Shown here: positions 32,504 to 43,845 of the stretch, piece after piece
Position numbering within the stretch: the first letter of the stretch is position 1
How the letters are laid out: each line of letters begins with the position of its first letter
Assembly (NCBI GenBank): GCA_964401135.1
Contig: CAYNXC010000002.1
Coordinates: forward strand, 16,457-80,456
Direction: 5' to 3'
From: an uncultured Candidatus Saccharibacteria bacterium
GTDB lineage: Bacteria; Patescibacteriota; Minisyncoccia; Phycocordibacterales; UBA9988
Length of the DNA: 64,000 nt
Notes under the pieces: generated by a model
Database searches by the model: none
What the model was told of the DNA's origin: nothing
What the model saw: only the letters and a program-made list of their open reading frames with translations
Made by a program: the position numbers and the translations under genes

Positions 32504-32588
32504 GGAGGGGTCGCATAGAGGCCTAGTGCGCGCGCTTGGAAAGCGCGTAAGGGTTACACCTTCGAGGGTTCGAATCCCTCCCTCTCCG
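32504..32588 (+). tRNA. tRNA-Ser (GGA), class II with a long variable arm.
   Basis: Acceptor GGAGGGG/CCTCTCC, anticodon stem CGCGC/GCGCG, loop TTGGAAA, variable hairpin AAGG-GTTACA-CCTT and T-arm GAGGG/CCCTC. Confidence 0.8.
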
Positions 32589-32666
32589 CACTAAGAACCT
32601 GGTAGTTTTGTGACCCAAGTACCTAAGGTTGTAGGGCGACCCAGGTACCTAGTAATTACCTGGAAA

Positions 32667-33911
32667 ATGCCCGACGAATATCGCAATCATCATTACGTAC
32701 CACAGTGGTACCAAAAGAAGTTCATGCTACCGAACGAGCATGAGTTATTTCACTTGGATTTAAAACCCGAGACGTTCACCGATCCTCGCGGCGTGGTTCA
32801 TACCAAGAAGCCATTACGGCGACAAGGTAGTAAAAAGTGTTTCGTCCAAGAGGATCTTTATACGACGAAGATTCAAGGTATCGAAACAAAGGATATAGAG
32901 AAATATTTCTTCGGCGATATTGATACCAAAGGTCGTCCTGCTGTCGAATATTTCGAGGGGTTTGATTATCCCCTTAAACCCTGGGGTGAATCACTTCAGG
33001 ACATCATGCGTTACATGAGTACACAGAAGCTCAGGACTCCGAAAGGTCTATCATTTCTTAGCGAGAAAATTGGAAGTAAGGATAAGGACGCGATTCTACG
33101 CAATATGATCCGAGTGCGTAATGTTCATGCCGCTATTTGGATGGAATGCGTCTGGCTTATTGCAGACGCTTCACAGTCGGAGACTAAATTCATCATCTCA
33201 GACCATCCCGTTACTGTTTATAATCGTGAATGCGGTCCTCGATCCAGTTACTGTCGAGACTCAAATGACCCCGAGATATGGCTTCAAGGTACGCATACAA
33301 TTTTTCCACTTTCCATAGATAAGGTTCTCATTCTCACAAATTTATCCTGGGTGCGGAATCCATATCAATCCGCAACCAATCTACGACCGAATCCAAATCC
33401 ATACCGCAATGCGATATTCAAATTTACTGACGTTCAGGTTCGACGACAATTAAGTGAACAAGAGGTACGAGAAATCAATTTCATCATAAAAAGCCGAGCT
33501 TCCCGATATGTAGCCGCAGCCAAAGAAGAATGGCTTTACCCAGAAAGACATGTATCCAAATCAGATTGGAACAAATACGGTCATGGATATCTTTTGATGC
33601 CCGATCCTCGCGCTATTCATTGGGGAGGAACCATAATGTGGGGCGGTGGCCCAGGCGGTCCAGGTGCAATGGATGAATATGGAAGACTGCCCGGAGATCC
33701 TGATTTTGAAGCAGAGACAACCAAAGGTAAGGAGTACCAAACGCTCCCTTGGTTTCAGGGAGAATTTGCAAAGCTGTTCGGTCCTTATCGCCGAGGCCGT
33801 TGTATGCAACATATTGAAATTGAAAAGGAACGGGACGATGATGAATTTCACCAGTACCATCTCGGTCTTCAGAAAAAGAGCTATAAGGAACGACACGGCA
33901 AGAAGAAATAG
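32667..33911 (+). CDS. DUF4238 family protein (HHYVPQ and SDHPV motifs). Cargo of the tRNA-Ser-adjacent island.
   Basis: The N-terminal RNHHYVPQWYQKKF and the central KFIISDHPVTV match the two hallmark motifs of DUF4238. The track ORF starts at 32610, but 32667 (MPDEY) is more plausible. Confidence 0.55.
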   Translation: MPDEYRNHHYVPQWYQKKFMLPNEHELFHLDLKPETFTDPRGVVHTKKPLRRQGSKKCFVQEDLYTTKIQGIETKDIEKYFFGDIDTKGRPAVEYFEGFDYPLKPWGESLQDIMRYMSTQKLRTPKGLSFLSEKIGSKDKDAILRNMIRVRNVHAAIWMECVWLIADASQSETKFIISDHPVTVYNRECGPRSSYCRDSNDPEIWLQGTHTIFPLSIDKVLILTNLSWVRNPYQSATNLRPNPNPYRNAIFKFTDVQVRRQLSEQEVREINFIIKSRASRYVAAAKEEWLYPERHVSKSDWNKYGHGYLLMPDPRAIHWGGTIMWGGGPGGPGAMDEYGRLPGDPDFEAETTKGKEYQTLPWFQGEFAKLFGPYRRGRCMQHIEIEKERDDDEFHQYHLGLQKKSYKERHGKKK

Positions 33912-33914
33912 TTT

Positions 33915-35225
33915 TTAGTTGGAGTCCTCTGTAAGCAGAGTAATCTTCTTATCGTTCAGCACCAATCTGCTTCTTAGATGACCCATCAGTTCACGCTTCT
34001 CAAGCGGTGTACCCTCGCGGAGTACGTATTTTGCATATTCCTTTGTCGCAATATCGTCTTCATCGATCTGCATCTTGGGCTTGCCTTTGACCGCAAGTCT
34101 CTGCAATCTATTGAATCGCTTAATTTCTTCTTCGAGCTTCATCCGCATGCCAAGCTCGTTCATGGTGAGCTTGTCGATAATCTTGAATAGTTCCTCGACG
34201 AGTTCTTCCTCGCGGATATATTTGTTCTTGCAGTTCCTGTCTCTCGCTTTCGAGCAAGAGTAGTAGACGTACTTTGCATTCGTGCCATCTTTGAGCAGTT
34301 TGTATTTCTCCTGCGCCGTGATGCCCGATCCGCACATGCCACAGGTAAATAATTTGGTGAAGGCAAACTCTCTGTTCTCGCGCACAACTTTGTCGCGCTT
34401 CAATTGCTCCTGCACTTTCTTGAATAATTCCTCGCTGATTAGCGGCTCATGTGTTCCTTGATACCAGTTGCCGCTGTTCTTTGGATACTCGAATGGTCCG
34501 TAATAAATGGGCATCTGGAGCATGCGATATACACCAGAGAGTGTGAGTGGCTTGTTACCTCGCGTATAGAAGTTAAGCTCGAAACGGAGCCAGTTGTACA
34601 CTTTTCTACCGCTCCACAAATCGTATGCCACTTTTTCAAACATCTGCTTCACGATCGGTGCACGTTGCGGATCAATAACGATACGGCATTTCTTTTCTAT
34701 CAATTTCTGGTTGAGATATCCGAGCGGCGCCATGCCCGGCCACAACCCCATCTCCACTCTCGTTCTCAAACCTCGCTTCACGTTGATGCCCCGGTTGTCG
34801 TTCTCGAGCTTCGCCTGCGATCCAAGGATCATGAGGAGGAATTTTTCATTCGGATTATTAGTAAACTTTTGTCCGTAGGTGCGTATTTCCTTGAGCTTTC
34901 CAACGTCCATAAGATCGATCACTTTGCCGAGGTCGCCTGCGTTACGGCTGATGCGATCCGGCGCCCATGTGAGGATACCGTTGTATTTGTCATCCCTAAT
35001 TTCTTCGATGATCTCGTTAAATACAGGGCGCTGGCCAGTCTCCTTGGCGGAGTGAGATTCTCGCTTCATTGTCACAACTTCCAAATTTTCTCGCTCTGCT
35101 AGCTGGAGCATCTCCTTGATCTGGGAATCGATAGAAAGCGCCTGTCGTTCCTCCGCTTCGCTCGACTTGCGGGCATACAGGCAATATCTGATTGGTTTCT
35201 GTTCCTTTACGGTTGCGTTTTCCAT
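33915..35225 (-). CDS. Large serine recombinase (integrase).
   Basis: N-terminal resolvase catalytic domain (YARKSS catalytic Ser, DRISRN), a recombinase domain, and a Cys4 zinc ribbon (CGMCGS...CSKARDRNC) with a coiled-coil tail. 436 aa. Confidence 0.85.
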   Translation of the reverse strand: MENATVKEQKPIRYCLYARKSSEAEERQALSIDSQIKEMLQLAERENLEVVTMKRESHSAKETGQRPVFNEIIEEIRDDKYNGILTWAPDRISRNAGDLGKVIDLMDVGKLKEIRTYGQKFTNNPNEKFLLMILGSQAKLENDNRGINVKRGLRTRVEMGLWPGMAPLGYLNQKLIEKKCRIVIDPQRAPIVKQMFEKVAYDLWSGRKVYNWLRFELNFYTRGNKPLTLSGVYRMLQMPIYYGPFEYPKNSGNWYQGTHEPLISEELFKKVQEQLKRDKVVRENREFAFTKLFTCGMCGSGITAQEKYKLLKDGTNAKYVYYSCSKARDRNCKNKYIREEELVEELFKIIDKLTMNELGMRMKLEEEIKRFNRLQRLAVKGKPKMQIDEDDIATKEYAKYVLREGTPLEKRELMGHLRSRLVLNDKKITLLTEDSN

Positions 35226-35349
35226 GCATACACGAACATACCGGATACGGGTACGAAGTCTAGCCGCATACGAAACACAGAGCAGAAGCGGGAGGAAGTC
35301 AACTACACAAAAATCCCGAGGGAAGCTAAGGTCTTTTAGGGGGTGAGAA

Positions 35350-35562
35350 TTAAAAACTAATGAGATTGTTCACTTTAAGCCCTAGTGCTTTGGCGATCTT
35401 CTCCATGTTGGTGAGTGTAATGTTTTTCTCGGCACGTTCAATCATACCGATGTATGTCCTGTGGACTTTAGCCAACTGCCCTAAGCGCTCTTGAGAAATA
35501 TCGCGTTTCAGTCGTTCTTCTCGGACTCTTTTGCCAAATTGTATGAGAATAGTCTTGTTCAT
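35350..35562 (-). CDS. XRE-family HTH transcriptional regulator (cI/Cro-like repressor).
   Basis: 70 aa with the HTH_3 motif (SQERLGQLAKVHRTYIGMIERAEKNITLTNMEKIAKAL). Confidence 0.8.
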   Translation of the reverse strand: MNKTILIQFGKRVREERLKRDISQERLGQLAKVHRTYIGMIERAEKNITLTNMEKIAKALGLKVNNLISF

Positions 35563-35586
35563 CTACACCGTTAAGTGTAGGAATTT

Positions 35587-35651
35587 GCTAACTTTGGTTC
35601 TATATACTATAGTTAGCATATATTCTTGAGAATTTTCATTGCAAAATTCTC
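35587..35651. promoter_or_regulatory. Two palindromic candidate operators in the divergent region between the XRE gene and the surface-protein gene.
   Basis: GCTAACT-N17-AGTTAGC at 35587..35617 and GAGAATTTT-N6-AAAATTCTC at 35628..35651. Confidence 0.4.
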
Positions 35652-35661
35652 GGGGGGGGGG
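35652..35661 (+). repeat. G10 homopolymeric tract 20 nt upstream of the ATG of the surface-protein gene.
   Basis: cGGGGGGGGGGtaaaattgagaacaatattcATG. It abuts operator palindrome 2. Confidence 0.9.
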
Positions 35662-35681
35662 TAAAATTGAGAACAATATTC

Positions 35682-36521
35682 ATGAATAAAATCTTTAAAA
35701 GACTACTCGTATTTGCGGTACTATTTGCTCTTACTTCTTCGAATGTTTTTGCTGCAACTAAAACCTGGGACTTTTCCACTTCGTCGGACTACACTTTTGA
35801 TACTACTAAAATTGAAGTCATAGGAGGACAAGCACAATTGAAAGCTACAACAACTCCTGCTTGGTATGACACCAGTTGGAAATATAGAAAGAAAATATCA
35901 ATTGACCATACAAAAATATCGTCAGATTTAACAGATTTTCCTGTTCTCGTTAATCAAACTTCTGACTCAGACTTGGCAGCCAAAGCGTTAACGTCAGGTA
36001 ACGATATATTTTTCACTTCATCTGATGGAGTTACAAAACTAAGCCACGAAATAGAGACATATGCATCAACAACAGGAGCTTTAGCTGCATGGATTAAAGT
36101 TCCTACAGTATCCTCTTCTGTAGATACTGATGTTTATATGTATTATGGTAATGCTGCAGCTTCTGCTCAAGCGAATGCAAATGGAGTATGGGATAGTAAT
36201 TCAATTGTTGTTCAACATCTTAATGCTACTACTAGCCCAGCACTAGACTCAACATCTAATGCGAATAGTGGAGTTCAGTCTGGAGGAGTTACTTTCAGTG
36301 CAACAGGCAAGATAGGTAATGCTGTGAGCATGGACGGTGTTAATGACAAACTATCCTTAACAAGTAATAGTGGCTTAAACGCAACAGGCACCCTAAGTAT
36401 TAGTGCATGGGTAAATAGAACTGCATCGGGCAAGATGAGGGTAGTTGCAAAAACAGTTACTACTGGAACAACTGACAACCCATATGATTTTGGTATAAAT
36501 ACGGATAATACACTTTATTTA
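35682..36521 (+). pseudogene. 5' fragment (about 280 codons) of a large secreted DUF2341/LamG-like surface-protein gene, interrupted by IS insertion.
   Basis: Signal peptide MNKIFKRLLVFAVLFALTSSNVFAA, a DUF2341-like WKYRKKISIDHTKISSDLTDFPVLV, and a LamG-like region. The frame runs into the IS left inverted repeat and stops 9 codons later. Confidence 0.75.
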
Positions 36522-36551
36522 AGGGAACTATATACAATGTTACCCTAAAAA

Positions 36552-37085
36552 TTAATTAGATTTTGGTTTGTCTAAATCTTCCAAAGAAAAGCCCAGGTCA
36601 GGAAAAATAAGATTTCTTAGATAAATACTCCCTGCAAAAAGAACGGTATTAATATCAACTCCAGACTGGAAAGCCCCTTGTTTGAGTGATTCTACAACAT
36701 CAGGACAATGTATTGGTAACTCCATCATTATCTCGGATATTACTTTCTCTGCATCATAAGGATTAGTCGTATTTTTACTTTGAACTAATTTTAGAAGTTC
36801 GTCTTTTTTTGCGTCAATAATTTCTTTAATTCCGCTATCATCTAAGATAGCTTGCCCTCTTGAGTTTAATTGTCGTGGAGAATTAGCAGGTGCAATTTTG
36901 TCTTTCCATAGAATATCCAGTTTAGGGAACATATCTGCCACTTTGGGTTTAATGTCTTTAATATCTTCCAGCATAAAATTTGTTCTTTCATCAATCCTCG
37001 CAATCAATTCACGAGTATTACCCAACAGGATAGCAGAAATCCAGTTACCTGCTTTTTTGGCTAAATTAAGGGCTTGTTGTTCCAT
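36552..37085 (-). CDS. Hypothetical 177-aa passenger protein of the IS element, function unknown.
   Basis: Intact ORF between IRL and the transposase gene, on the opposite strand. No motif recognised. Confidence 0.5.
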   Translation of the reverse strand: MEQQALNLAKKAGNWISAILLGNTRELIARIDERTNFMLEDIKDIKPKVADMFPKLDILWKDKIAPANSPRQLNSRGQAILDDSGIKEIIDAKKDELLKLVQSKNTTNPYDAEKVISEIMMELPIHCPDVVESLKQGAFQSGVDINTVLFAGSIYLRNLIFPDLGFSLEDLDKPKSN

Positions 37086-37197
37086 AGGATTATTACATTA
37101 CTAGTATATCAAAACGGCTGTTGCAAGTTAATACTAGTCAAAAAGTTACCCCCAATTATTACTTGACAACCCTATTGTGATCGTATAAGCTATAGGT

Positions 37198-38115
37198 ATG
37201 GATAGCCGATACAAAACCTTGGTAGAGTTCCTCGCCCACTTTAAGGATGAGGAAACCTGTCAAAAATACTTTGAGCAAATCCGCTTCTCCCAAGGCGAGT
37301 ATTGCCCTCATTGTAACCACAGTAAAATCAACCGCTTTTCAGACGGCAAACGCTTTCGCTGTGCTAAGTGCAAAAAGGACTTCACTATTAAGACCAAGAC
37401 CGTCTTTGGCGAAAGCAAAATCTCAATGCAGAAATGGTTTGTCGCAATTTACCTTTTGTCCGTCAATAAGAAAGGCATTAGCTCTATTAACCTAGCCGAG
37501 CAAGTGGGCGTTACTCAAAAGACCGCGTGGTTTATGGATCATCGTATTCGTAAAGCCTTGAAACAAAATAGCGGTCAGTTGTTTGGCACAGTAGAAATAG
37601 ACGAAACCTATATCGGCGGCAAGGAAAAGAACAAGCACGCCCACAAGCGAACCAAGCGCACCCAAGGCCGAAACACTTTGACCAAAACCCCTGTAATGGG
37701 AATGATACAGCGAGGCGGTGCAATGAAAGCCAAAGTGATAGATAATGTAAAGATGCGAACCTTGGAAAGTCTGATTATTGAAAATGTAAAAATTGGGACA
37801 CAGCTCTACACAGACGAGTTTTTGTCTTACTCCAAAATCGGCAGTCTCTTTGCTCACGAGGCCGTGTCACACGGCAAAGGCCAGTATGTAAAAGGTGATA
37901 GCCACTCCAACACCGCCGAGAGTTTTTGGGCATTGTTTAAGCGTGGCTACTACGGCACTTACCACAACATGAGTAAGAAGCATTTGCAGAAGTATGTGGA
38001 CGAGTTCGTGTATCGCTTTAACAACCGAGCCGTGGAGCTAGCCGATGTATTCACTGATGTCGTGGCGAATGTAGCGGGTAGCGAGAAGCTGGCTTATAAG
38101 ACTCTTACCGCTTAA
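37198..38115 (+). CDS. IS1595-family DDE transposase.
   Basis: N-terminal zinc ribbon (CPHCNHSKI...FRCAKCKKDF), VEIDETYIGGKEKNKH, SNTAESFWALFKRGYYGTYH and YVDEFVYRFNNR blocks characteristic of IS1595/ISXO2-like transposases. Confidence 0.85.
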   Translation: MDSRYKTLVEFLAHFKDEETCQKYFEQIRFSQGEYCPHCNHSKINRFSDGKRFRCAKCKKDFTIKTKTVFGESKISMQKWFVAIYLLSVNKKGISSINLAEQVGVTQKTAWFMDHRIRKALKQNSGQLFGTVEIDETYIGGKEKNKHAHKRTKRTQGRNTLTKTPVMGMIQRGGAMKAKVIDNVKMRTLESLIIENVKIGTQLYTDEFLSYSKIGSLFAHEAVSHGKGQYVKGDSHSNTAESFWALFKRGYYGTYHNMSKKHLQKYVDEFVYRFNNRAVELADVFTDVVANVAGSEKLAYKTLTA

Positions 38116-38116
38116 T

Positions 38117-39025
38117 ATGTCCCCACGAGAACGCAAATATCACGAGGGGTTAGGGGTAGACTTTAATCAAGCTCTTGTCTCTATTGCTGGTGAGAACCGA
38201 ACCGAGCGGAGTATCGCCGCCCGACCATTTCTAAAGTGGGTCGGTGGCAAGCGGTCAATCCTGCCAGAGCTTCTAAAGCGGTTGCCGACCAAGTATGACG
38301 CTTACCATGAGCTGTTTCTAGGCGGTGGTGCGTTGTACTTCGCCGTCCAGCCAGAGGAGGCTTATCTGTCTGATGTAAACTTCCACCTCATCCTTACTTT
38401 CAAGGCGGTGCGAGATGATCTGGACAGCTTAATCCGTCAGTTAAAAATCCACGAACGATTACACAACAAGGAATACTATCTCAAAGCTCGCCAGAAGCTC
38501 TTTAAGGAAAAGGACACCACCAAACTGGCGGCTCTCTTTATCTACCTCAATAAAACTTGCTTCAATGGTCTTTACCGAGTAAACAAGGGGGGTGGCTTCA
38601 ATGTCCCGATGGGCGACTACAAAGACCCAAACATTTTAGACGAGGAAAATCTGCGTAATGCTTCAAAGGTTTTAGCGACCGCCGAGATTAAACAGCACGG
38701 CTTTGAGCATACCAAAATCTACAAAGGCGACTTCTACTATCTTGACCCGCCCTATCACGAAACCTATAGCGGTTATGATGGCTCTGGCTTTGGCGATGAA
38801 CACCACCGCAAGCTCGCCGAGTTCTGCAAACAGATAGACCAAAAGGGCAGTTACTTTATGCTCTCCAACAGCGACACGCCATTTGTCAGAGAGTTATATA
38901 AGGGCTATACTATTGAGCAAGTAGAGGCTTCACGAAATGTCTCTTGCAAAGCCCACCAGCGAGGCAAAGAAAATGAGCTTATCATCCGAAACTACACCAA
39001 TAACGGGGGGCGGACAAGCCAATAA
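38117..39025 (+). CDS. Dam-family N6-adenine DNA methyltransferase (alpha class).
   Basis: FLKWVGGKRSILPELL (SAM-binding motif I) and YYLDPPY (motif IV). About 300 aa. Confidence 0.85.
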   Translation: MSPRERKYHEGLGVDFNQALVSIAGENRTERSIAARPFLKWVGGKRSILPELLKRLPTKYDAYHELFLGGGALYFAVQPEEAYLSDVNFHLILTFKAVRDDLDSLIRQLKIHERLHNKEYYLKARQKLFKEKDTTKLAALFIYLNKTCFNGLYRVNKGGGFNVPMGDYKDPNILDEENLRNASKVLATAEIKQHGFEHTKIYKGDFYYLDPPYHETYSGYDGSGFGDEHHRKLAEFCKQIDQKGSYFMLSNSDTPFVRELYKGYTIEQVEASRNVSCKAHQRGKENELIIRNYTNNGGRTSQ

Positions 39026-39473
39026 AACGGGCAGTGTTTTAGAGCTATTTATCAAGCGACTTTTAGAGGACAACGGCTACACCGCCTTTCCTAACCACAA
39101 AGCCCAGCTATTCGCCAATCGTAAAACTGTCGGTGGTAAGCAATACTCTACCCAAGTTCCTTGTGGTACGAGTATCTACGAAACCCAGCGTAAATGCGAC
39201 TTCTTGATCATGAACCAAGACAAGTTCCCCGATGGACTGGTGATTGAGTGCAAGTGGCAACAGTCTACTGGCTCGGTAGACGAGAAGTACCCTTTTACCT
39301 TGTTTAACATCATCAAGATCGGCGTGCCAACCATCATTCTGCTGGACGGCAACGGCTACAAAAAGGCGGCGATGAAGTGGTTAAAAGACCAAGTGAACCC
39401 ACAGAGAGCCTTAATCGGCGTTTACAATATGGCCGAGTTTCAAGCTATGGTAAATAAGGGGTTTTTAGGTTAG
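38937..39473 (+). CDS. Short PD-(D/E)XK nuclease, the putative restriction endonuclease partner of the Dam methylase.
   Basis: CDFLIM...GLVIECKWQ gives a D...ExK core. It overlaps the 3' end of the methylase gene (possible true start M13 at 38973), and its stop is inside the IRR. Confidence 0.55.
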   Translation: MSLAKPTSEAKKMSLSSETTPITGGGQANKTGSVLELFIKRLLEDNGYTAFPNHKAQLFANRKTVGGKQYSTQVPCGTSIYETQRKCDFLIMNQDKFPDGLVIECKWQQSTGSVDEKYPFTLFNIIKIGVPTIILLDGNGYKKAAMKWLKDQVNPQRALIGVYNMAEFQAMVNKGFLG

Positions 39474-39490
39474 GGTAACTTTGTATATAA

Positions 39491-42190
39491 TTCCCTTATT
39501 TAAATCGTGCAGATTCAAGTGTTGTAAATTTTCTATCAAGTTCAACAACTGTACCGACAAATTCATGGACAAAAATTGAAGTAATTGATGACACTGTCGT
39601 TAAAAGTGCTTTCAACAGCGTCTCAAAATTAGTCACCCTAGCGACATCTACAAGAGCGTGGCAGGGGGTAGCAAGTGATGGGACTTATATCTATGCAATT
39701 GGACAAAATGCTATTTCGCAGTTTGATATGCAAGGTAATTTTATAAAAGAAAAGAATAATGTATACAGTGGTTTTACTGGTGGCAACATCCTAGGTAATG
39801 GAACAGTAATTAATGGAAAGTTATATGTCGGGGCATATAATGCGAATACTTTAGGAGCGTCAACAAATCCTAATTACACTCCGTTATCAGATCTTCAATC
39901 AAAAATTGCTGTCTTTAGCCTATCTGATTTTTCATTAATTGAAGATTTTAACCTTGGTACTCAAGTAAAAATTGCTGAGGGTGTTGATTATCACAATGGT
40001 TACTTTTGGGTAGTTGATGGATGGTTTGATACTTTCGTCGTAAAAAAATACGATACTAGTTTTAATTTAGTCTCTACGTATAGCTTGCCTGTAGCAAATG
40101 CTTTCGCTGGAGAATTAACATACCAAAATATTAATTGGTATGGGAATGACATTTTTGTTAATTGGCATGGCTCAAATTCTTTTGGACAAACCTATGCTTA
40201 TGGGTTGGATCATTATTCTTTTGACGGAACAAATTTTAATTTTGTAGAACGATTAAGACCAGTAACATATGGTGCAGGTCAAGGTATTGCAATTGTCGGA
40301 AATACGTTTTATTGGGCAGATAGACCTGGAAATGCGATCTACAAATCAACATATGTTGGAGCTGGAAATGGTGATGATGGTATTGATCCATCACATACAA
40401 AATTTTTCATAAATGGAGTTGGTGAGCTTGCTCATGTAAGTACTGGCTCTCTCACTGTGCTTTCACCTACAAGTAATACCAGTCCAACGGTTATTGGAAC
40501 TAGGGGCGATTCAAGTAGTTTTTATAAAGGTGTCATAGATGAAGTTCGAATTTCAAATGCGGCAAGATCAGATGCATGGGTCTCGGCAAGTTACGCCAAT
40601 GAAAACTCACCAAGTACATTCTATTCGATGGGTTCGGAACAAAAAAATTATGCAGCTACTAACCCGACTGTTAATCCCACATCATTAAATGCGCAAGCCT
40701 TCTCATCCCTGTCAGGCTTTTCAGCAGTTGAAGTAAGTAATGGAGGAAATATAAAGTATCAAGTTTCAAATGATGGAGGAACCACATGGTATTGGTACAA
40801 CTCTGGCTGGAATACAACAACTTCAGGATACTCTGAGACAAATGCATCTTCAACTATAAATACAAATATCGCTTCTTTACCTGTAGGAAGTGGATCATAC
40901 TTATTTAAAGCATATTTAAATTCTGATGGAACGCAGCAACCTCAGATAGACAGTGTGGTGCTCACATACTCTGCGCCACTTGATATTACAGCTCCTATTA
41001 TATCTGCGATAGCGTCTTCTACATCCCAAACTTCAGCAACTATTACCTGGACGACCGATGAATCAGCCACATCAACGGTAAATTATGGTCTTAACACTTC
41101 ATACGGTACAGCGTCATCCTCATCATCTCTCGTTACCTCTCATTCGATATCCTTGTCAGGATTAACCGCATCAACCGCATACCATTTCCAAGTAGCATCA
41201 GCTGACGCTTCTGGAAACGTTGCAACTTCTTCAGACTATACATTCACCACAACAGCAGTGCCTGACACAACGCCTCCGGTCATTTCATCAATTTCTTCCG
41301 GTTCACTTTCAACTTCAGGAACAACTATAACTTGGACCACTGATGAAGCTGCGGATTCCCAAGTTAACTACGGCACAAGTGCCTCATATGGATCACAGAC
41401 GACCCTTGATTCAACACTAGTGACGAGTCACTCCATTGTAATTTCAGGTCTTTCTGCAGGAACGACGTATCACTACCAAGTAGTGTCAAAAGATGCTTCT
41501 GGAAACACAGCTACATCTTCTGACCAAACCTTTACCACTTCAGCACAGCCTTCGAGCGGGGGTTCATCAAGCGGATCATATTCCGGAGGAGGCTCAATCC
41601 TTATCCAACCTTCTGTGCCGGGCTGTCCTACAGGATTCAATTGTGTAGTAAATCCAACCCCTACCATTTTACCAAATACTTTTACTCGTGATCTCACCAT
41701 AAAAAGTACTGGTAGTGATGTGAAGGTATTGCAGCAGTTCCTGATCGCTAAAGGCTTTCTTGCGAGCGGCAATGACACGGGATACTTTGGTCCTCTGACG
41801 CAAGCTGCTCTCGCGCAATACCAGCTTTCGATGGGTATTAAACCATCGGTTGGATATTTCGGCTCACTTACTCGTGCAGTCATTGCTGTCTCGCAGAACA
41901 TATCACCTACTACTCCATCAATATCAACAAATCCGACGGTACTTCCAAGCACGTTTACTCGAGATCTGTATTTCGGCATGAGTGGAGACGATGTAAAACT
42001 CTTGCAAAAGTTCCTTAATGACCATCAATTTATAGTCAGCCAAACTGGCGCAGGATCTCCAGGACTTGAATCAAATTATTTCGGCCCAGCCACCCGAGAC
42101 GCCCTTATTCGTTTTCAGACTTACAATCACATAGTCCCTGCAGTAGGGTATTTTGGTTCGCTTACACGCCAATTCGTAAATGGTCAGTAG
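39491..42190 (+). pseudogene. 3' portion (about 896 codons) of the IS-interrupted surface-protein gene, with two FN3-like domains and two peptidoglycan-binding (PG_binding_1-like) domains.
   Basis: The frame is open from 39491, immediately after the IRR. ITWTTDESATSTVNYG...AYHFQVASADASGN occurs twice (FN3/PAP-N-like), and GSDVKVLQQFL...YFGPLTQAAL occurs twice (PG-binding). The track ORF starts at an internal ATG, 39728. Confidence 0.75.
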
Positions 42191-42233
42191 GAGTGGATAA
42201 CCCGACTACACAAATCTAAAGAAGGAAGCTAAG

Positions 42234-42596
42234 TTACTTACGTTCGTCCTCAGGCCATGGCTTTGGGCCGAACATCTCGTCGATCTTCTTGATCTCGTCT
42301 TCTGTAAGTTCGCGCTTCGGAGGCCGTTCCGGTACTGGGTCTCCTTTGTACTTCGGCGGCTTTCCGTCCATATGCTCCCAGATGAGCTTGATCATCCGAT
42401 GATCGCCGTCCAGTGCCATCCTTATGATTTTCTCAACCAACGCATCTGCAATAGTCTTGTCTTTATCACTCACAATCCTTTTACTGAGTATCTCTTGGAA
42501 TTGGCTCGTTAGTGTTTTGCCCGGAGGCCTTCCGTTCAAGTTTCTTCTCGGGTCGAATCCGCTTTGGAATGGCTTGAGGTTATTGATGTTGCCCAT
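42234..42596 (-). CDS. Small basic protein with an N-terminal LKPFQSGFDPRRNLNGRP motif (DUF5681-like / AT-hook-like). Tandem paralogue 1.
   Basis: Start placed at MGNINNLKPF by alignment with the neighbouring paralogue. Confidence 0.5.
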   Translation of the reverse strand: MGNINNLKPFQSGFDPRRNLNGRPPGKTLTSQFQEILSKRIVSDKDKTIADALVEKIIRMALDGDHRMIKLIWEHMDGKPPKYKGDPVPERPPKRELTEDEIKKIDEMFGPKPWPEDERK

Positions 42597-42945
42597 GGTC
42601 GTTTCGTTTAAAATACTTCTCAAAATCCGCCTGTTCTTCGGGCGTGTACTCGACCTTTTCTTGCGGTACAAATGGGGTAGGTACCACAAACTCGTCAGGC
42701 ACCTTGCCGTCCACTTGGTCGATGACCATACTCATGGCTTTCAGGTTGCCCTTGGCCGCCTTCCACACAAGCTGCATTACGATAGCCTTATCCTTCCGTG
42801 CCATCTTGCCGTTGAAGTAGACTTTCTCCTTCAATATTTCCATAATCACGGTTCTCACATTCCGAGAACCCTTCGGTCTACCCTTGGTATTCCTTCTTGG
42901 ATCGTACCCTGATTGAAAGGGCTTCAATGTTTTTATATTTCCCAT
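42580..42945 (-). CDS. Small basic protein with an N-terminal LKPFQSGYDPRRNTKGRPKGSRN motif. Tandem paralogue 2.
   Basis: Start placed at MGNIKTLKPF. The shared N-terminal motif and the central helical block align with paralogue 1. Overlaps paralogue 1 by 17 bp. Confidence 0.5.
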   Translation of the reverse strand: MGNIKTLKPFQSGYDPRRNTKGRPKGSRNVRTVIMEILKEKVYFNGKMARKDKAIVMQLVWKAAKGNLKAMSMVIDQVDGKVPDEFVVPTPFVPQEKVEYTPEEQADFEKYFKRNDHGQHQ

Positions 42946-43252
42946 ATCTGGTATTTTACCGGCTTTTTTGTTTGTAAAGGGGTGCATTACTTTCTCGCAG
43001 TTATTTTCACAGATAAAAGGGTGAAAAACGGCTTCTTTTAAGCCTTCGATTTTTCCCGTAATTTCACAGTATTTACGGGTATTTTGACCCCGACCCACAA
43101 ACCTCCTTCGGCTTCCCGAAAAAGTGCTAGAATACCCTTACGACACCTAATCATATGGGTACCGTACCCATAGCCCCCGCAAATTGAAACTTCCTGTTCC
43201 GAAAGCCGAATTGACCGTTGCATGAATAGTATTATCGTCCTAATATATATAC

Positions 43253-43651
43253 ATGAAAGGATACACAGCAAATATTGAGAAGGATACGGTAGCAAACAGT
43301 AGCTTCCGTAAGGTGCTCTATACGGGCAAGCACAGCCAGTTGGTACTGATGAGCATCCCGCCCAAGGGAGAGATTGGTCTGGAGACGCATACAGACAACG
43401 ACCAGTTTTTCCGTTTTGAGAAAGGGGTGGGGAAGTGCCTCATTGATGGTAACGAGTACGCGGTAGGGGACGGTGTCGCGGTGGTGGTCCCTGCAGGAGC
43501 AGAGCACAATGTTATTAACACATCAGAGATCGATGATCTCAAGCTTTACACTATTTACTCGCCATCACATCATAAGGACGGGATCATCCGTGCGACGCGA
43601 GAGGAGGCAGAGGCCAATGAGGCAGAGTTTGACGGCGTGACGAGTGAGTAG
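43253..43651 (+). CDS. Cupin-domain protein.
   Basis: Conserved-barrel motifs G(X)5HxH-like (LETHTDNDQFF...) and PAGAEHNVIN. Confidence 0.65.
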   Translation: MKGYTANIEKDTVANSSFRKVLYTGKHSQLVLMSIPPKGEIGLETHTDNDQFFRFEKGVGKCLIDGNEYAVGDGVAVVVPAGAEHNVINTSEIDDLKLYTIYSPSHHKDGIIRATREEAEANEAEFDGVTSE

Positions 43652-43656
43652 TAGAG

Positions 43657-43845
43657 TTGAGAGATATGAAGATAGATACAACAACCAAGTGGCTTATCGG
43701 AGCCTTTATCGTCGCTGTCATCCTCGCGTATGGATGCTATGCTAAACGGCCCCTCACGGAGCAAATAGGGGATCCTGACGGCTATATAGCCCCCTCTGGT
43801 TCCCCAACAACCACCGCTCCTACCACCACGCCACCAGCATTCTAA
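43657..43845 (+). CDS. Small single-TM protein with a Thr/Pro-rich tail (hypothetical).
   Basis: 62 aa, one TM segment. The call rests on operon position alone. Confidence 0.3.
   Translation: MRDMKIDTTTKWLIGAFIVAVILAYGCYAKRPLTEQIGDPDGYIAPSGSPTTTAPTTTPPAF

Follow-up and report, generated by a model that had tools for sequence, protein, structure and literature searches.

A tandem pair of DUF5681-family genes at the end of a serine-integrase element, a possible minimal phage satellite of CPR bacteria

A gene pair at the end of an integrative element

Our analysis concerns a 64-kb stretch of DNA (hereafter the window) in which two adjacent genes lie on the minus strand in the same orientation, with an overlap of 17 bp (42580-42596). 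Gene A (42580-42945, ATG at 42945, stop at 42580) encodes a DUF5681-family protein of 121 aa, and gene B (42234-42596, ATG at 42596, stop at 42234) encodes a paralogue of 120 aa. Because of the overlap, the two are probably translationally coupled. Both products are basic (pI 9.7 for A and 9.2 for B). Their first 30 residues are especially so (pI 11.6-11.7), and their tail is acidic. The two share the N-terminus MGNI(K/N)(T/N)LKPFQSG(Y/F)DPRRN(TK/LN)GRP(K/P)G. BLASTP aligns them over 112 aa with 36% identity (E=2e-19), far above chance. These results bear out the preliminary description, which had reported overlapping minus-strand paralogues for small basic proteins with a common N-terminus, lying between an IS-disrupted surface-protein gene and a cupin gene.

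Each copy has its own orthologues, and the pair is an ancient tandem duplicate of a DUF5681-family protein. Comparison with the orthologues gave dN/dS values of 0.15-0.22 for A and 0.06-0.11 for B, at dS 0.5-1.2 (a set that leaves out the comparison of A with locus L005, where the frame was wrong). With such low ratios, both are real genes under purifying selection. The first methionine of gene A is invariant across 34 homologues, which shows the 121-aa start to be the real one, and we rejected the 135-aa upstream start chosen by some gene callers. Pseudogenisation might be read from the 61-, 74- and 61-aa gene calls in L006-L008, but the DNA of these loci is 100% identical to the window and the calls are thus gene-caller artefacts.

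The pair is the last, attR-terminal module of an element of 10,591 bp (32591-43181), inserted at the 3' end of a tRNA-Ser(GGA) gene (32504-32589, plus strand, identified with ARAGORN and Rfam) that served as its integration target. The 5-bp core CCGCA is found as attL at the 3' end of the tRNA gene (32586-32590) and as attR at the right-hand boundary (43177-43181, plus strand), beyond which lies the cupin gene (43253-43651). The junctions were defined against three empty-site contigs from other samples (L009, L010 and L012), which read ...CCCTCTCCGCA|AATTGAAAC and in which the tRNA-Ser 3' end is joined straight to the sequence following 43181. A 99.8%-identical copy with the same element end and another flank is found in L001, beside tRNA-Ser(TGA). 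Given the integrase domains, the precise junctions with a short core and the empty site, this is a polymorphic site-specific integrative element with a large serine integrase. The gene pair had been placed downstream of a tRNA-Ser island, when it actually lies inside the island, at its far end. Likewise, its assignment to a low-GC stretch holds for the element (GC 0.433) and fails for the pair itself (0.483, against 0.477 in the window).

The gene content of the element is modest. A gene for a DUF4238 protein of 433 aa (32610-33911, plus strand; Pfam PF14022, E=5e-17) starts 20 bp inside attL, is directed into the element, and occupies what we call cargo slot 2. The large serine integrase (33915-35225, minus strand, 436 aa; Pfam Resolvase, Recombinase and Zn_ribbon_recom) comes next, and upstream of it, on the same strand, an ORF encodes an XRE-type HTH protein of 70 aa (35350-35562, minus strand). 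An identical copy of the latter is called HTH_31/HTH_3 in L001, L006 and L008, and the gene is not conserved throughout the element family. Cargo slot 1 holds the surface-protein gene (35667-42190, plus strand; DUF2341/LamG/Fn3/PG-binding domains by Pfam), which encodes 1175 aa when intact, according to the gene tables of L001, L006 and L008. Here the gene is interrupted by an insertion of 2,964 bp (36523-39486), which we delimited by BLASTN comparison with the undisrupted L006. The inserted DNA has a 177-aa ORF together with genes for an IS1595 transposase, a Dam methylase and a PD-(D/E)XK (DpnII-like) nuclease. Prior to this insertion of IS1595 and restriction-modification genes, the element measured about 7.6 kb.

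We detected no capsid-morphogenesis, structural or lysis genes in the element, and neither its proteins nor 36 cargo proteins of its sister elements have a Pfam match to a primase, replication-initiator or replicative-helicase domain. A large terminase was found neither in the element nor, with the seeds used, elsewhere in the window, and no such gene lies directly downstream of A and B. The predicted attP junction reads ...CCCATAGCCCCCGCA|CTAAGAACCTGG...; an exact search of JGI metagenome contigs for it (CCATAGCCCCCGCACTAAGAACCTGG) found no match and no excised form, and the conserved 22-mer described below had none in IMG/VR, both negatives being uninformative. Reconstructed attP and attB show no dyad symmetry at 11 or more of 22 matches.

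Relatives in CPR elements and in phages

At least 11 related elements occur in bacteria of the Candidate Phyla Radiation (CPR), and the only genes common to them are the integrase and DUF5681. An all-against-all comparison of 9 elements gave the same picture, with these two as the sole shared families. Integrase orthologues of about 57% identity are present in every sister element with enough flanking sequence, while DUF5681 identity among elements is 30-40%, and distant members (L088, L091) have the same layout. The sister elements adjoin tRNA-Gln or tRNA-Lys genes, where the core at the 3' end of the tRNA is 4 nt long. The homologues of A and B are found in mobile elements at varying sites and are not the syntenic core genes that the preliminary description had named as evidence against its own reading.

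The cargo of these elements is variable and rich in defence genes. Slot 2 of the sisters is occupied by Shedu SduA, Hypoth_Ymh, reverse transcriptases or other genes, and sister cargo taken together includes Shedu (3 elements), type II and type III restriction-modification systems, reverse transcriptases and PHP+AAA_21; TIR proteins are also among the defence genes carried. No primase, replication initiator or relaxase was detected in sister cargo, no large terminase in any element locus, and no capsid, replication or conjugation genes in the element or its CPR relatives. Several sister integrases are frameshifted or truncated, indicating that part of the element family is decaying.

The Pfam family DUF5681 (PF18932) has a gathering cutoff of 27.5 bits, which gene A exceeds with 37.4 bits (E=3.8e-9). 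Gene B falls just short of it at 25.8 bits, yet by its sequence it is clearly homologous to A, and most of its orthologues have a precomputed PF18932 match. The likeness to DUF5681, suggested with some doubt in the preliminary description, is hence confirmed by the HMM search. Our profile search (A1) retrieved 6,819 cluster representatives, with lengths of 63-208 aa among the 150 matches listed. Searches of PHROGs and NCBIfam returned solely families of unknown function or noise, all PHROGs families matching DUF5681 are annotated as of unknown function, and a sequence-profile search against solved structures had no match at E<=10. A tblastn search of 50,697 GenBank phages with gene A and with a phage-type member gave one weak match each, showing that isolated, annotated relatives are rare. 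In the literature searched, DUF5681/PF18932 was found in a single paper, as a virion-associated protein of Salmonella phage STGO-35-1 without a stated function.

Tailed-phage contigs have the order [ParB/methylase]-DUF5681-TerL-portal, and relatives were found directly upstream of large-terminase genes in 53 viral contigs, in support of the phage-derived origin first proposed for A and B. At loci with room downstream, the viral DUF5681 gene is nearly always followed, after 0-500 nt and on the same strand, by an ORF of 380-750 aa (the exception being a small group followed by a 341-aa ORF). Pfam recognized a large terminase in 9 of 10 such ORFs, and in a set of 37 it matched Terminase_3 in 18 and Terminase_6N in 17. 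The isolated Bacteroides phage Versailles fits this arrangement, since its relative overlaps terL as annotated and the portal gene comes right after terL. Genes upstream of phage DUF5681 encode methylases, ParB or HNH proteins, and a known small-terminase family was never seen there; in other CPR phages the same slot is filled by a small HTH-type protein. Gene position therefore suggests that DUF5681 proteins are small-terminase-like.

Solved small terminases have an N-terminal DNA-binding domain, a helical oligomerisation core and a C-terminal barrel. The AF2 model of gene A (pLDDT 75) has a confident helical core, preceded by residues 1-29 at pLDDT 59-67 and without regular secondary structure. 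Foldseek searches of viral models returned DUF5681 phage proteins, the best structural matches to the window proteins, and one entry named 'Terminase small subunit'. A and B share with the family the basic N-terminal motif (..F.xG.xxNP/DPRRNxxGRPKG) and the helical core. They differ in belonging to a CPR subgroup and in being linked to a serine integrase, not to a large terminase. In their C-terminal third, element-borne proteins lack the phage-type 'GGxxLxIxxV' strand and acidic tail, and have instead a Pro-rich linker and an amphipathic helix (..EExxRLxxLF..). In small terminases, contact with the large terminase or closure of the ring usually falls to this region.

The N-terminal motif had also been likened to an AT-hook. 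As in HMGA proteins, A and B have a G-R-P core within a basic, disordered stretch, and A/T tracts are found beside the boxes described below; the GRPKGSRN of gene A resembles GRPKGSKN of the second HMGA1 hook. But the surrounding residues are non-canonical (TKGRPKG in A and LNGRPPG in B, not R-G-R-P), the Pfam AT_hook profile has no match in either protein at E<=10, and the G-R-P belongs here to the longer invariant peptide LKPFxxGxDPRRNxxGRP.

Tandem boxes upstream of DUF5681 genes

Two tandem boxes with a 12-bp period, CTGTGA-AAATAA-CTGCGA, lie 55-67 nt upstream of gene A (42995-43012, minus strand). The CTG(T/C)GA tandem occurs a single time in the 64-kb window, against 0.11 occurrences expected. 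The same tandem boxes sit right upstream of DUF5681 genes in phage contigs, with a spacing of 11-12 bp. Of 32 non-redundant phage loci, 21 have one or more exact boxes no further than 60 nt from the start, with a chance expectation of 0.011 per locus (binomial P ~1e-33), and boxes were found in every element locus examined. This association makes the CTG(T/C)GA boxes a candidate packaging-recognition site.

A third CTGTGA box (43064-43069) is contained in the 31-mer AAAATACCCGTAAATACTGTGAAATTACGGG (43055-43085, minus strand), where it falls within three phased repeats of about 10 bp, TACCCGTAAA, TACTGTGAAA and TTACGGGAAA. The full 31-mer is unchanged in three of four aligned sequences, with 2 nt differing in L003, and its 22-nt core ATACCCGTAAATACTGTGAAAT recurs without change in L001-L008, in L067 and L068, and in 7 further metagenome contigs. 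Another conserved non-coding block, GTAAGGGTATTCTAGCA (43125-43141, minus strand; alignments A2 and A3), is located on the attR side of the boxes. These upstream blocks are more conserved than the synonymous sites of A and B, at the dS given above. We considered the hairpin CCCGTAA-N11-TTACGGG within the 31-mer as an RNA element, and dropped this reading because distant elements do not keep the hairpin, whereas they keep the direct CTGTGA repeats. An Rfam search of the upstream region at E<=1 found nothing relevant, and a scan for the sigma-70 consensus found no promoter upstream of A on the gene strand. On the opposite strand, a hairpin with a T-run (42948-42972, plus strand) resembles an outward-facing intrinsic terminator, antisense to A and B, and ends 3 nt from the start codon of gene A. 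Hairpins of other sequence occupy the same position in L004, L005, L072 and L091, each with an A-run before it on the gene strand.

A possible phage satellite and its alternatives

We favour the reading that, by binding the boxes, A and B tag the element so that a helper phage packages it, a form of satellite piracy to which we give a probability of about 0.45. In this mechanism, A and B would act together as sequence-specific DNA-recognition proteins, as their probable translational coupling suggests. Recognition of the phased CTGTGA boxes and of the flanking A/T tracts would fall to the invariant, strongly basic and disordered N-terminal arm (LKPFxxGxDPRRNxxGRP), and oligomerisation to the helical core. 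Like the small terminases of SaPI and PICI, the complex would then mark the DNA of the element to be packaged by the large terminase of a helper, into the helper's capsids. Since the boxes are located at the very end of the element and are directed inward, packaging begun there would take in the entire element first. Thus, the element may be a minimalist phage satellite of CPR bacteria. Several observations weigh against this reading. The DUF5681 proteins of the elements differ from the TerL-linked members in the C-terminal third, the element has no replication module to make concatemers, and no helper phage was identified, the CPR prophages of the same integrase clade carrying a different type of small terminase.

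Large serine integrases need a recombination directionality factor for attL x attR recombination, and A and/or B could be this factor, switching the integrase from integration to excision. They would do so by binding the phased boxes, which lie 110-190 bp away from the crossover at attR, or by contacting the integrase through the C-terminal helix, which is specific to the elements and could be an integrase-binding module. DUF5681 is the one conserved candidate, as all elements have it in common with the integrase and with nothing else, and both the genes and the direct-repeat boxes adjoin the att site. The Xis of phiRv1 is a DNA-binding directionality factor that serves a serine integrase. In the PLE satellite, this factor is supplied by the helper phage. 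Such factors are not known to have a defining sequence signature. Yet, phages with TerL next door have the same boxes before DUF5681, and no serine integrase was found within 6 kb of their box-DUF5681-TerL loci, which implies that the pairing of protein and boxes is not tied to an att site. Besides, most known directionality factors of serine integrases act by protein contacts, without DNA sites, and DUF5681 is intact in four loci (L068, L081, L082 and L086) where the integrase is frameshifted or lost. We regard this role as unlikely.

Somewhat less likely still is that A and B retain from a small terminase just its DNA-recognition half and serve as regulators or packaging decoys. As regulators, they would repress their own promoter by binding the CTGTGA boxes, which coincide in part with the likely promoter and 5' part of the operon. 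As decoys, they would sit on the packaging site of DUF5681-type phages during infection and prevent packaging, acting in defence. The loss of the phage-type C-terminal strand and tail fits this reading, as does the dominance of defence genes in the cargo, and satellites are known to encode proteins that interfere with packaging (SaPI Ppi, PICI Rpp). But autoregulation alone explains neither why DUF5681 is the sole conserved partner of the integrase in very divergent elements nor how an element that lacks transfer genes moves horizontally.

It is very improbable that the element is an inert prophage remnant left by internal deletion, with DUF5681 as leftover small-terminase genes of no present role: although CPR prophages of the same clade share the right-end layout TerS-TerL-[cargo]-Int-[cargo]-tRNA, some sister integrases are damaged and the surface-protein gene is IS-disrupted here, the minimal layout recurs in elements so diverged in integrase and DUF5681 that they must have long persisted as small elements, purifying selection is strong with orthologues for each copy, the upstream blocks are more conserved than synonymous sites, and both att junctions are exact, an empty site being known as well as a nearly identical copy at a second insertion site.

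The satellite reading can be further evaluated by comparison with known families. Five core components define PICIs (PMC10085698). The integrase is present here as a large serine recombinase, not the usual tyrosine type. The regulation module (alpA, merR, stl) may have a counterpart in the XRE HTH gene beside the integrase, which is not family-wide. The primase-replicase module and the capsid-morphogenesis gene were not detected, the latter being likewise without a profiled representative in SaPI-type variants (PMC10085698). The small terminase would be represented by the two DUF5681 genes, on the basis of the position of their phage relatives and not of the profiles of PMC10085698, and they are unaccompanied by tail, holin, portal or large-terminase genes. 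Like SaPI, PICI and the terS-bearing tycheposons of Prochlorococcus (10.1101/2020.12.28.424599), the elements described here are small (6-11 kb), often lie at a tRNA gene, and carry an integrase, often an HTH regulator, accessory or defence cargo, and a gene of small-terminase type accompanied by a candidate recognition site, without large terminase, tail or lysis genes. In contrast to SaPI and PICI, the terminase-like gene is here duplicated and comes from an uncharacterised family, and the hosts are CPR/Patescibacteria, with neither a known helper nor known induction.

The PLEs of Vibrio cholerae (PMC9410903) also use a large serine recombinase and depend on a helper for packaging, but they span about 18 kb, have their own replication initiator and many anti-ICP1 genes, lack DUF5681, and have no sequence relationship with the element. 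The PICMIs of Vibrionaceae (PMC10803314) resemble it in their very small size, reduced gene content, defence cargo and lack of capsid-remodelling genes. They have a core of three excision and replication proteins, including the regulator AlpA, integrate next to fis and have no terminase-like gene, whereas the core here is a serine integrase and a small-terminase-like protein, and integration is in tRNA genes. More tentatively than the role of A and B, we propose that these elements could form a new satellite family of CPR/Patescibacteria, with a core of one prophage-type large serine integrase and one or two DUF5681 genes, terminal CTGTGA packaging boxes, two exchangeable slots for anti-phage cargo, and transfer by helper piracy.

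CPR bacteria have tiny genomes, and their gene exchange is poorly understood. Our literature search joining 'Candidate Phyla Radiation' and 'phage satellite' found only work on haloarchaea and nanosized symbionts. If the satellite reading is true, the elements would be the first family of phage satellites to be described from the Candidate Phyla Radiation, and the minimal needs of a satellite would be an integrase, a DNA-recognition subunit and its site. DUF5681 would then be a widespread small-terminase family with a recognition site that can be read from sequence. Whatever the mechanism, this large family gains a testable assignment to the small-terminase slot in many uncultured phages, together with a family-wide cis element, the tandem CTGTGA boxes, as a possible packaging or operator site. 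The elements themselves are compact, precisely bounded, tRNA-targeting carriers of Shedu, restriction-modification systems, reverse transcriptases and TIR proteins.

The DUF5681 gene pair

The two adjacent minus-strand ORFs of the preliminary description lie exactly where it placed them: gene A runs from an ATG at 42945 to a stop at 42580 (121 aa), gene B from an ATG at 42596 to a stop at 42234 (120 aa), and they overlap by 17 bp. They are paralogues, as had been proposed, with 36% identity over 112 aligned residues (BLASTP, E=2e-19) and a common N-terminus, MGNI..LKPFQSG(Y/F)DPRRN..GRP. Both proteins are basic (pI 9.7 for A, 9.2 for B), with a strongly basic stretch in the first 30 residues (pI ~11.6) and an acidic tail. 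The proposed likeness to DUF5681 was borne out by Pfam PF18932, which matches A at 37.4 bits (cutoff 27.5) and B at 25.8 bits. The low GC content ascribed to their setting does not apply to the pair itself (0.483, against 0.477 for the window), although the whole element is lower (0.433).

Both genes are under selective constraint. Their dN/dS relative to orthologues is low, 0.15-0.22 for A and 0.06-0.11 for B (dS 0.5-1.2), as expected of real, constrained genes. An alignment of 34 homologues shows no variation at the initial methionine or through most of the N-terminal motif, which sets the start of gene A at the 121-aa form and rules out the 135-aa start picked by some gene callers. Contigs encoding an identical cupin protein are present in other samples, and three (L006-L008) match the window at 100% identity over the pair. 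Public gene calls in these three contigs break the pair into pieces of 61, 74 and 61 aa despite identical DNA (42191-43700), and annotations of the DUF5681 family in assemblies are unreliable; the 74-aa database protein P0018 is the C-terminal part of gene A only. A 162-aa antisense ORF (42424-42912, plus strand), also open in the related loci L004, L005 and L067, most likely just mirrors the constrained genes on the sense strand.

Metagenomes are the source of the close homologues (62 for A, 16 for B), and the named sources, Paceibacterota, 'Saccharibacteria' and Staskawiczbacteria, are all CPR/Patescibacteria. At E<=1e-3, a subfamily profile retrieved 6,819 cluster representatives, with lengths of 63-208 aa among the 150 listed. 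PHROGs and NCBIfam searches gave nothing beyond 'unknown function', and we found no functional literature on DUF5681. Some relatives (P0080, P0081, P0083, P0085, P0088 and P0096, the last on a 554-bp contig) have a CxxC directly after the helical core, for example CPRC, CPNC or CPGC, and may be a zinc-binding variant.

A mobile element and its relatives

The pair lies at the attR end of a mobile element inserted in tRNA-Ser(GGA). Other contigs from the set with the identical cupin protein (L009, L010 and L012) have the empty site: they begin with the tRNA-Ser 3' end fused to the region upstream of the cupin gene (...GGTTCGAATCCCTCCCTCTCCGCA joined to AATTGAAACTTCC), and comparison with them places the end of attL at 32590 (core copy 32586-32590) and that of attR at 43181 (core copy 43177-43181), with a 5-bp common core, CCGCA, and an element length of 10,591 bp. 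In contig L001 a copy with 99.8% identity abuts tRNA-Ser(TGA) and another flank, and thus reveals a second insertion site. Insertions at the tRNA-Ser(GGA)/cupin junction vary, making it a polymorphic hotspot (L009-L013, L001); in L011 and L013 two further unrelated sequences are fused to the same ...CCGCA/AATTG junction and may therefore be other elements in this site. Direct repeats of 12-20 bp flank the reconstructed attP on both sides in L005 and L067 (ACCCGTCTAGGTC), the version in L004 being CTGACGGCTxTxAGTC..GATACT, and the window has a weaker one, T(T)GGGTC, at ~43090-43110 and ~32600-32625. In the attP and attB of the window, the dyad symmetry usual for att sites of serine integrases was not detected.

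The element's genes, in order from attL, encode a DUF4238 protein, a large serine integrase with Resolvase, Recombinase and zinc-ribbon domains, an XRE HTH protein, a surface protein, B and then A; ~235 bp of non-coding DNA separates gene A from attR. The surface-protein gene (1175 aa) is split by a 2,964-bp insertion (36523-39486) with a 177-aa ORF, an IS1595-family transposase, a Dam-type methylase and an overlapping PD-(D/E)XK (DpnII-like) nuclease, which looks like a restriction-modification system travelling with an IS; a stretch of ~18 bp in L006 aligns to either flank of the insertion and may be a target duplication. The DUF4238 gene (32610-33911) starts only 20 bp past the tRNA-Ser/attL junction, which leaves no space for its own promoter, and may be transcribed by read-through from the tRNA when integrated; circularisation would bring it to face the conserved sequence upstream of gene A.

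Every related CPR locus with enough flanking sequence (L004, L005, L067, L068, L070-L072, L081 and L082, and the more distant L088 and L091) has the same layout: one or two DUF5681 genes, opposite-strand cargo, a serine integrase, opposite-strand cargo and a tRNA. The exception is L069, where the integrase lies upstream of DUF5681 and the tRNA was not found. These elements measure ~5.7-10.6 kb, target tRNA-Gln, -Ser or -Lys with a crossover core formed by the first 4-5 nt of the tRNA 3' end, and encode orthologous integrases (~57% identity). An all-against-all comparison of nine elements yielded DUF5681 and the integrase as the only common gene families, the HTH gene being present in some elements. 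Among the cargo are Shedu SduA (three elements), type II and type III restriction-modification, Hypoth_Ymh, reverse transcriptases, PHP+AAA_21, proteases and PabAB-like enzymes; searches of these loci and their cargo gave no primase, replication initiator, relaxase, large terminase or capsid gene. The integrase is frameshifted or truncated in L068, L070, L081 and L082 and missing in L086, so part of the family is decaying.

The same integrase clade is present in 65 IMG/VR contigs (L092-L156; 44-85% identity), a widespread group of probable CPR (pro)phages. A large terminase (TerL) occurs in 46 of them, often directly upstream of the integrase, and the order is ParB/methylase, HTH-type small protein, TerL, defence cargo, integrase and tRNA. 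Their right ends resemble the small elements: (TerS-TerL), opposite-strand defence cargo, integrase, cargo and tRNA. In L092, whose integrase is 85% identical to that of the window, the TerL-integrase interval contains a type I restriction-modification system and two ThsB-TIR genes; this contig also has a second, split serine recombinase. None of the 65 contigs encodes DUF5681, the slot behind ParB/methylase being taken by another HTH-type small protein (..ACEKxGISRATYYRW..), and no serine integrase lies within 6 kb of DUF5681 in contigs where this gene adjoins TerL. The small elements thus join a DUF5681 recognition module to an integrase/cargo backbone of the CPR-prophage type, without the terminase motor.

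Terminase neighbourhood and upstream boxes

DUF5681 relatives are encoded on 53 IMG/VR viral contigs. In contigs with room, nearly every such gene is followed, 0-500 nt downstream on the same strand, by an ORF of 380-750 aa, except in a small group with a 341-aa ORF. Of ten such downstream ORFs, Pfam identifies nine as large terminases; in a set of 37, Terminase_3 matches 18 and Terminase_6N 17, and the C-terminal nuclease domains match 9 and 7. The isolated Bacteroides phage Versailles encodes a relative, annotated 'hypothetical protein', whose gene overlaps the one annotated as terminase large subunit, and the portal gene is next. The genes upstream encode DNA methylases (6), ParB_N proteins (4), HNH endonucleases (2) and others, with no known small-terminase family among them. 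One TerL gene beside DUF5681 (L016, 1375-3546) carries an intein (Intein_splicing and Hint domains). The context of the homologues, which the preliminary description had proposed to inspect, places phage relatives directly before TerL and CPR relatives in elements with a serine integrase. Its observation is real, and its reading of the pair as likely phage-derived DNA-binding modules is supported.

Conservation is higher in the non-coding DNA from gene A to attR than in the proteins. Upstream of gene A, three of four aligned sequences share an invariant 31-mer, AAAATACCCGTAAATACTGTGAAATTACGGG (minus strand, 43085-43055), from which L003 differs by 2 nt, and its 22-nt core, ATACCCGTAAATACTGTGAAAT, is identical in L001-L008, L067, L068 and seven more metagenome contigs. 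The most distant elements retain same-strand CTG(T/C)GA boxes spaced by 10-12 bp. In the window they lie on the minus strand at 43069-43064, 43012-43007 and 43000-42995, and the 64 kb contain a single copy of the tandem form (0.11 expected). The same tandem boxes are found 3-20 nt upstream of the DUF5681 start codon in many unrelated phage contigs (e.g., AAACTGTGAGGAAACTGCGAGAAATG and ATAGCTGTGAAGGAGCTGTGAGAAAATTATG): among non-redundant phage loci, 21 of 32 carry one or more exact boxes within 60 nt (background expectation 0.011 per locus; binomial P ~1e-33), and most of the others show near-matches. An invariant peptide and an invariant DNA motif thus travel together in phages whose hosts evidently differ, and recognition of the boxes by the N-terminal arm of DUF5681 is the simplest inference.

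A hairpin with a T-run (42948-42972, plus strand), is antisense to the pair and faces out of the element, with its end 3 nt from the start codon of gene A. It is found at the same position in L004, L005, L067, L072 and L091, where sequences differ and structure is kept, with a compensatory change between L072 and L091. Gene B and the surface-protein gene converge with no terminator between them, so cargo transcripts may run antisense through B and A and stop at the hairpin.

A possible role in packaging, and its rivals

The analysis establishes the paralogy of A and B, their constraint and family membership, the boundaries and mobility of the element, its core genes, the synteny of DUF5681 with TerL and the association with the boxes; the mechanism is a proposal. 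We give a probability of about 0.45 to the idea that A and B bind the boxes and present the element to the TerL of a helper phage, as a satellite would. They would probably act as a hetero-oligomer, because their translation is probably coupled; the basic arm would bind the phased boxes, and the bound proteins would hand the DNA to the helper terminase, as small terminases of SaPI and PICI do. Since the boxes face inward from the extreme end of the element, packaging begun there would take the whole element first. Defence-rich cargo and the lack of autonomous transfer or replication genes also fit a satellite. Several points count against it: there is no known helper phage; the C-terminal third of element-borne proteins (a Pro-rich linker and an ..EExxRLxxLF.. 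helix) differs from that of TerL-linked relatives (a GGxxLxIxxV strand and an acidic tail); an exact search of JGI metagenome contigs gave no predicted attP junction; and the conserved 22-mer gave no virome copy in IMG/VR.

That DUF5681 is the integrase's sole conserved partner and adjoins attR might instead indicate an excision factor for the serine integrase, but the boxes also occur in integrase-free phage contexts and we regard this role as unlikely. A function as autoregulator or packaging decoy seems slightly less probable still. An inert prophage relic is very improbable, given the long-term conservation of the minimal layout, the purifying selection on both genes and the intact att junctions.

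The closest functional analogues of the satellite reading are the terS modules of SaPI/PICI satellites and PICI-like tycheposons, and PLE is an analogue through its large serine integrase. Two of the five PICI core components are present outright, the integrase (of another class here) and a small-terminase-like gene; the XRE HTH gene of the window's element might stand for the regulator, but relatives do not all have it. The element has neither a primase-replicase nor a capsid-morphogenesis component and, failing on these two, should not be filed as a PICI. PICMI is set apart by its three core proteins for excision and replication and by the lack of a described terminase-like gene. In the literature searched, 'Candidate Phyla Radiation' and 'phage satellite' co-occur in a single paper, on haloarchaea and their nanosized symbionts. 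The interest of the A/B element would rise if its packaging were shown.
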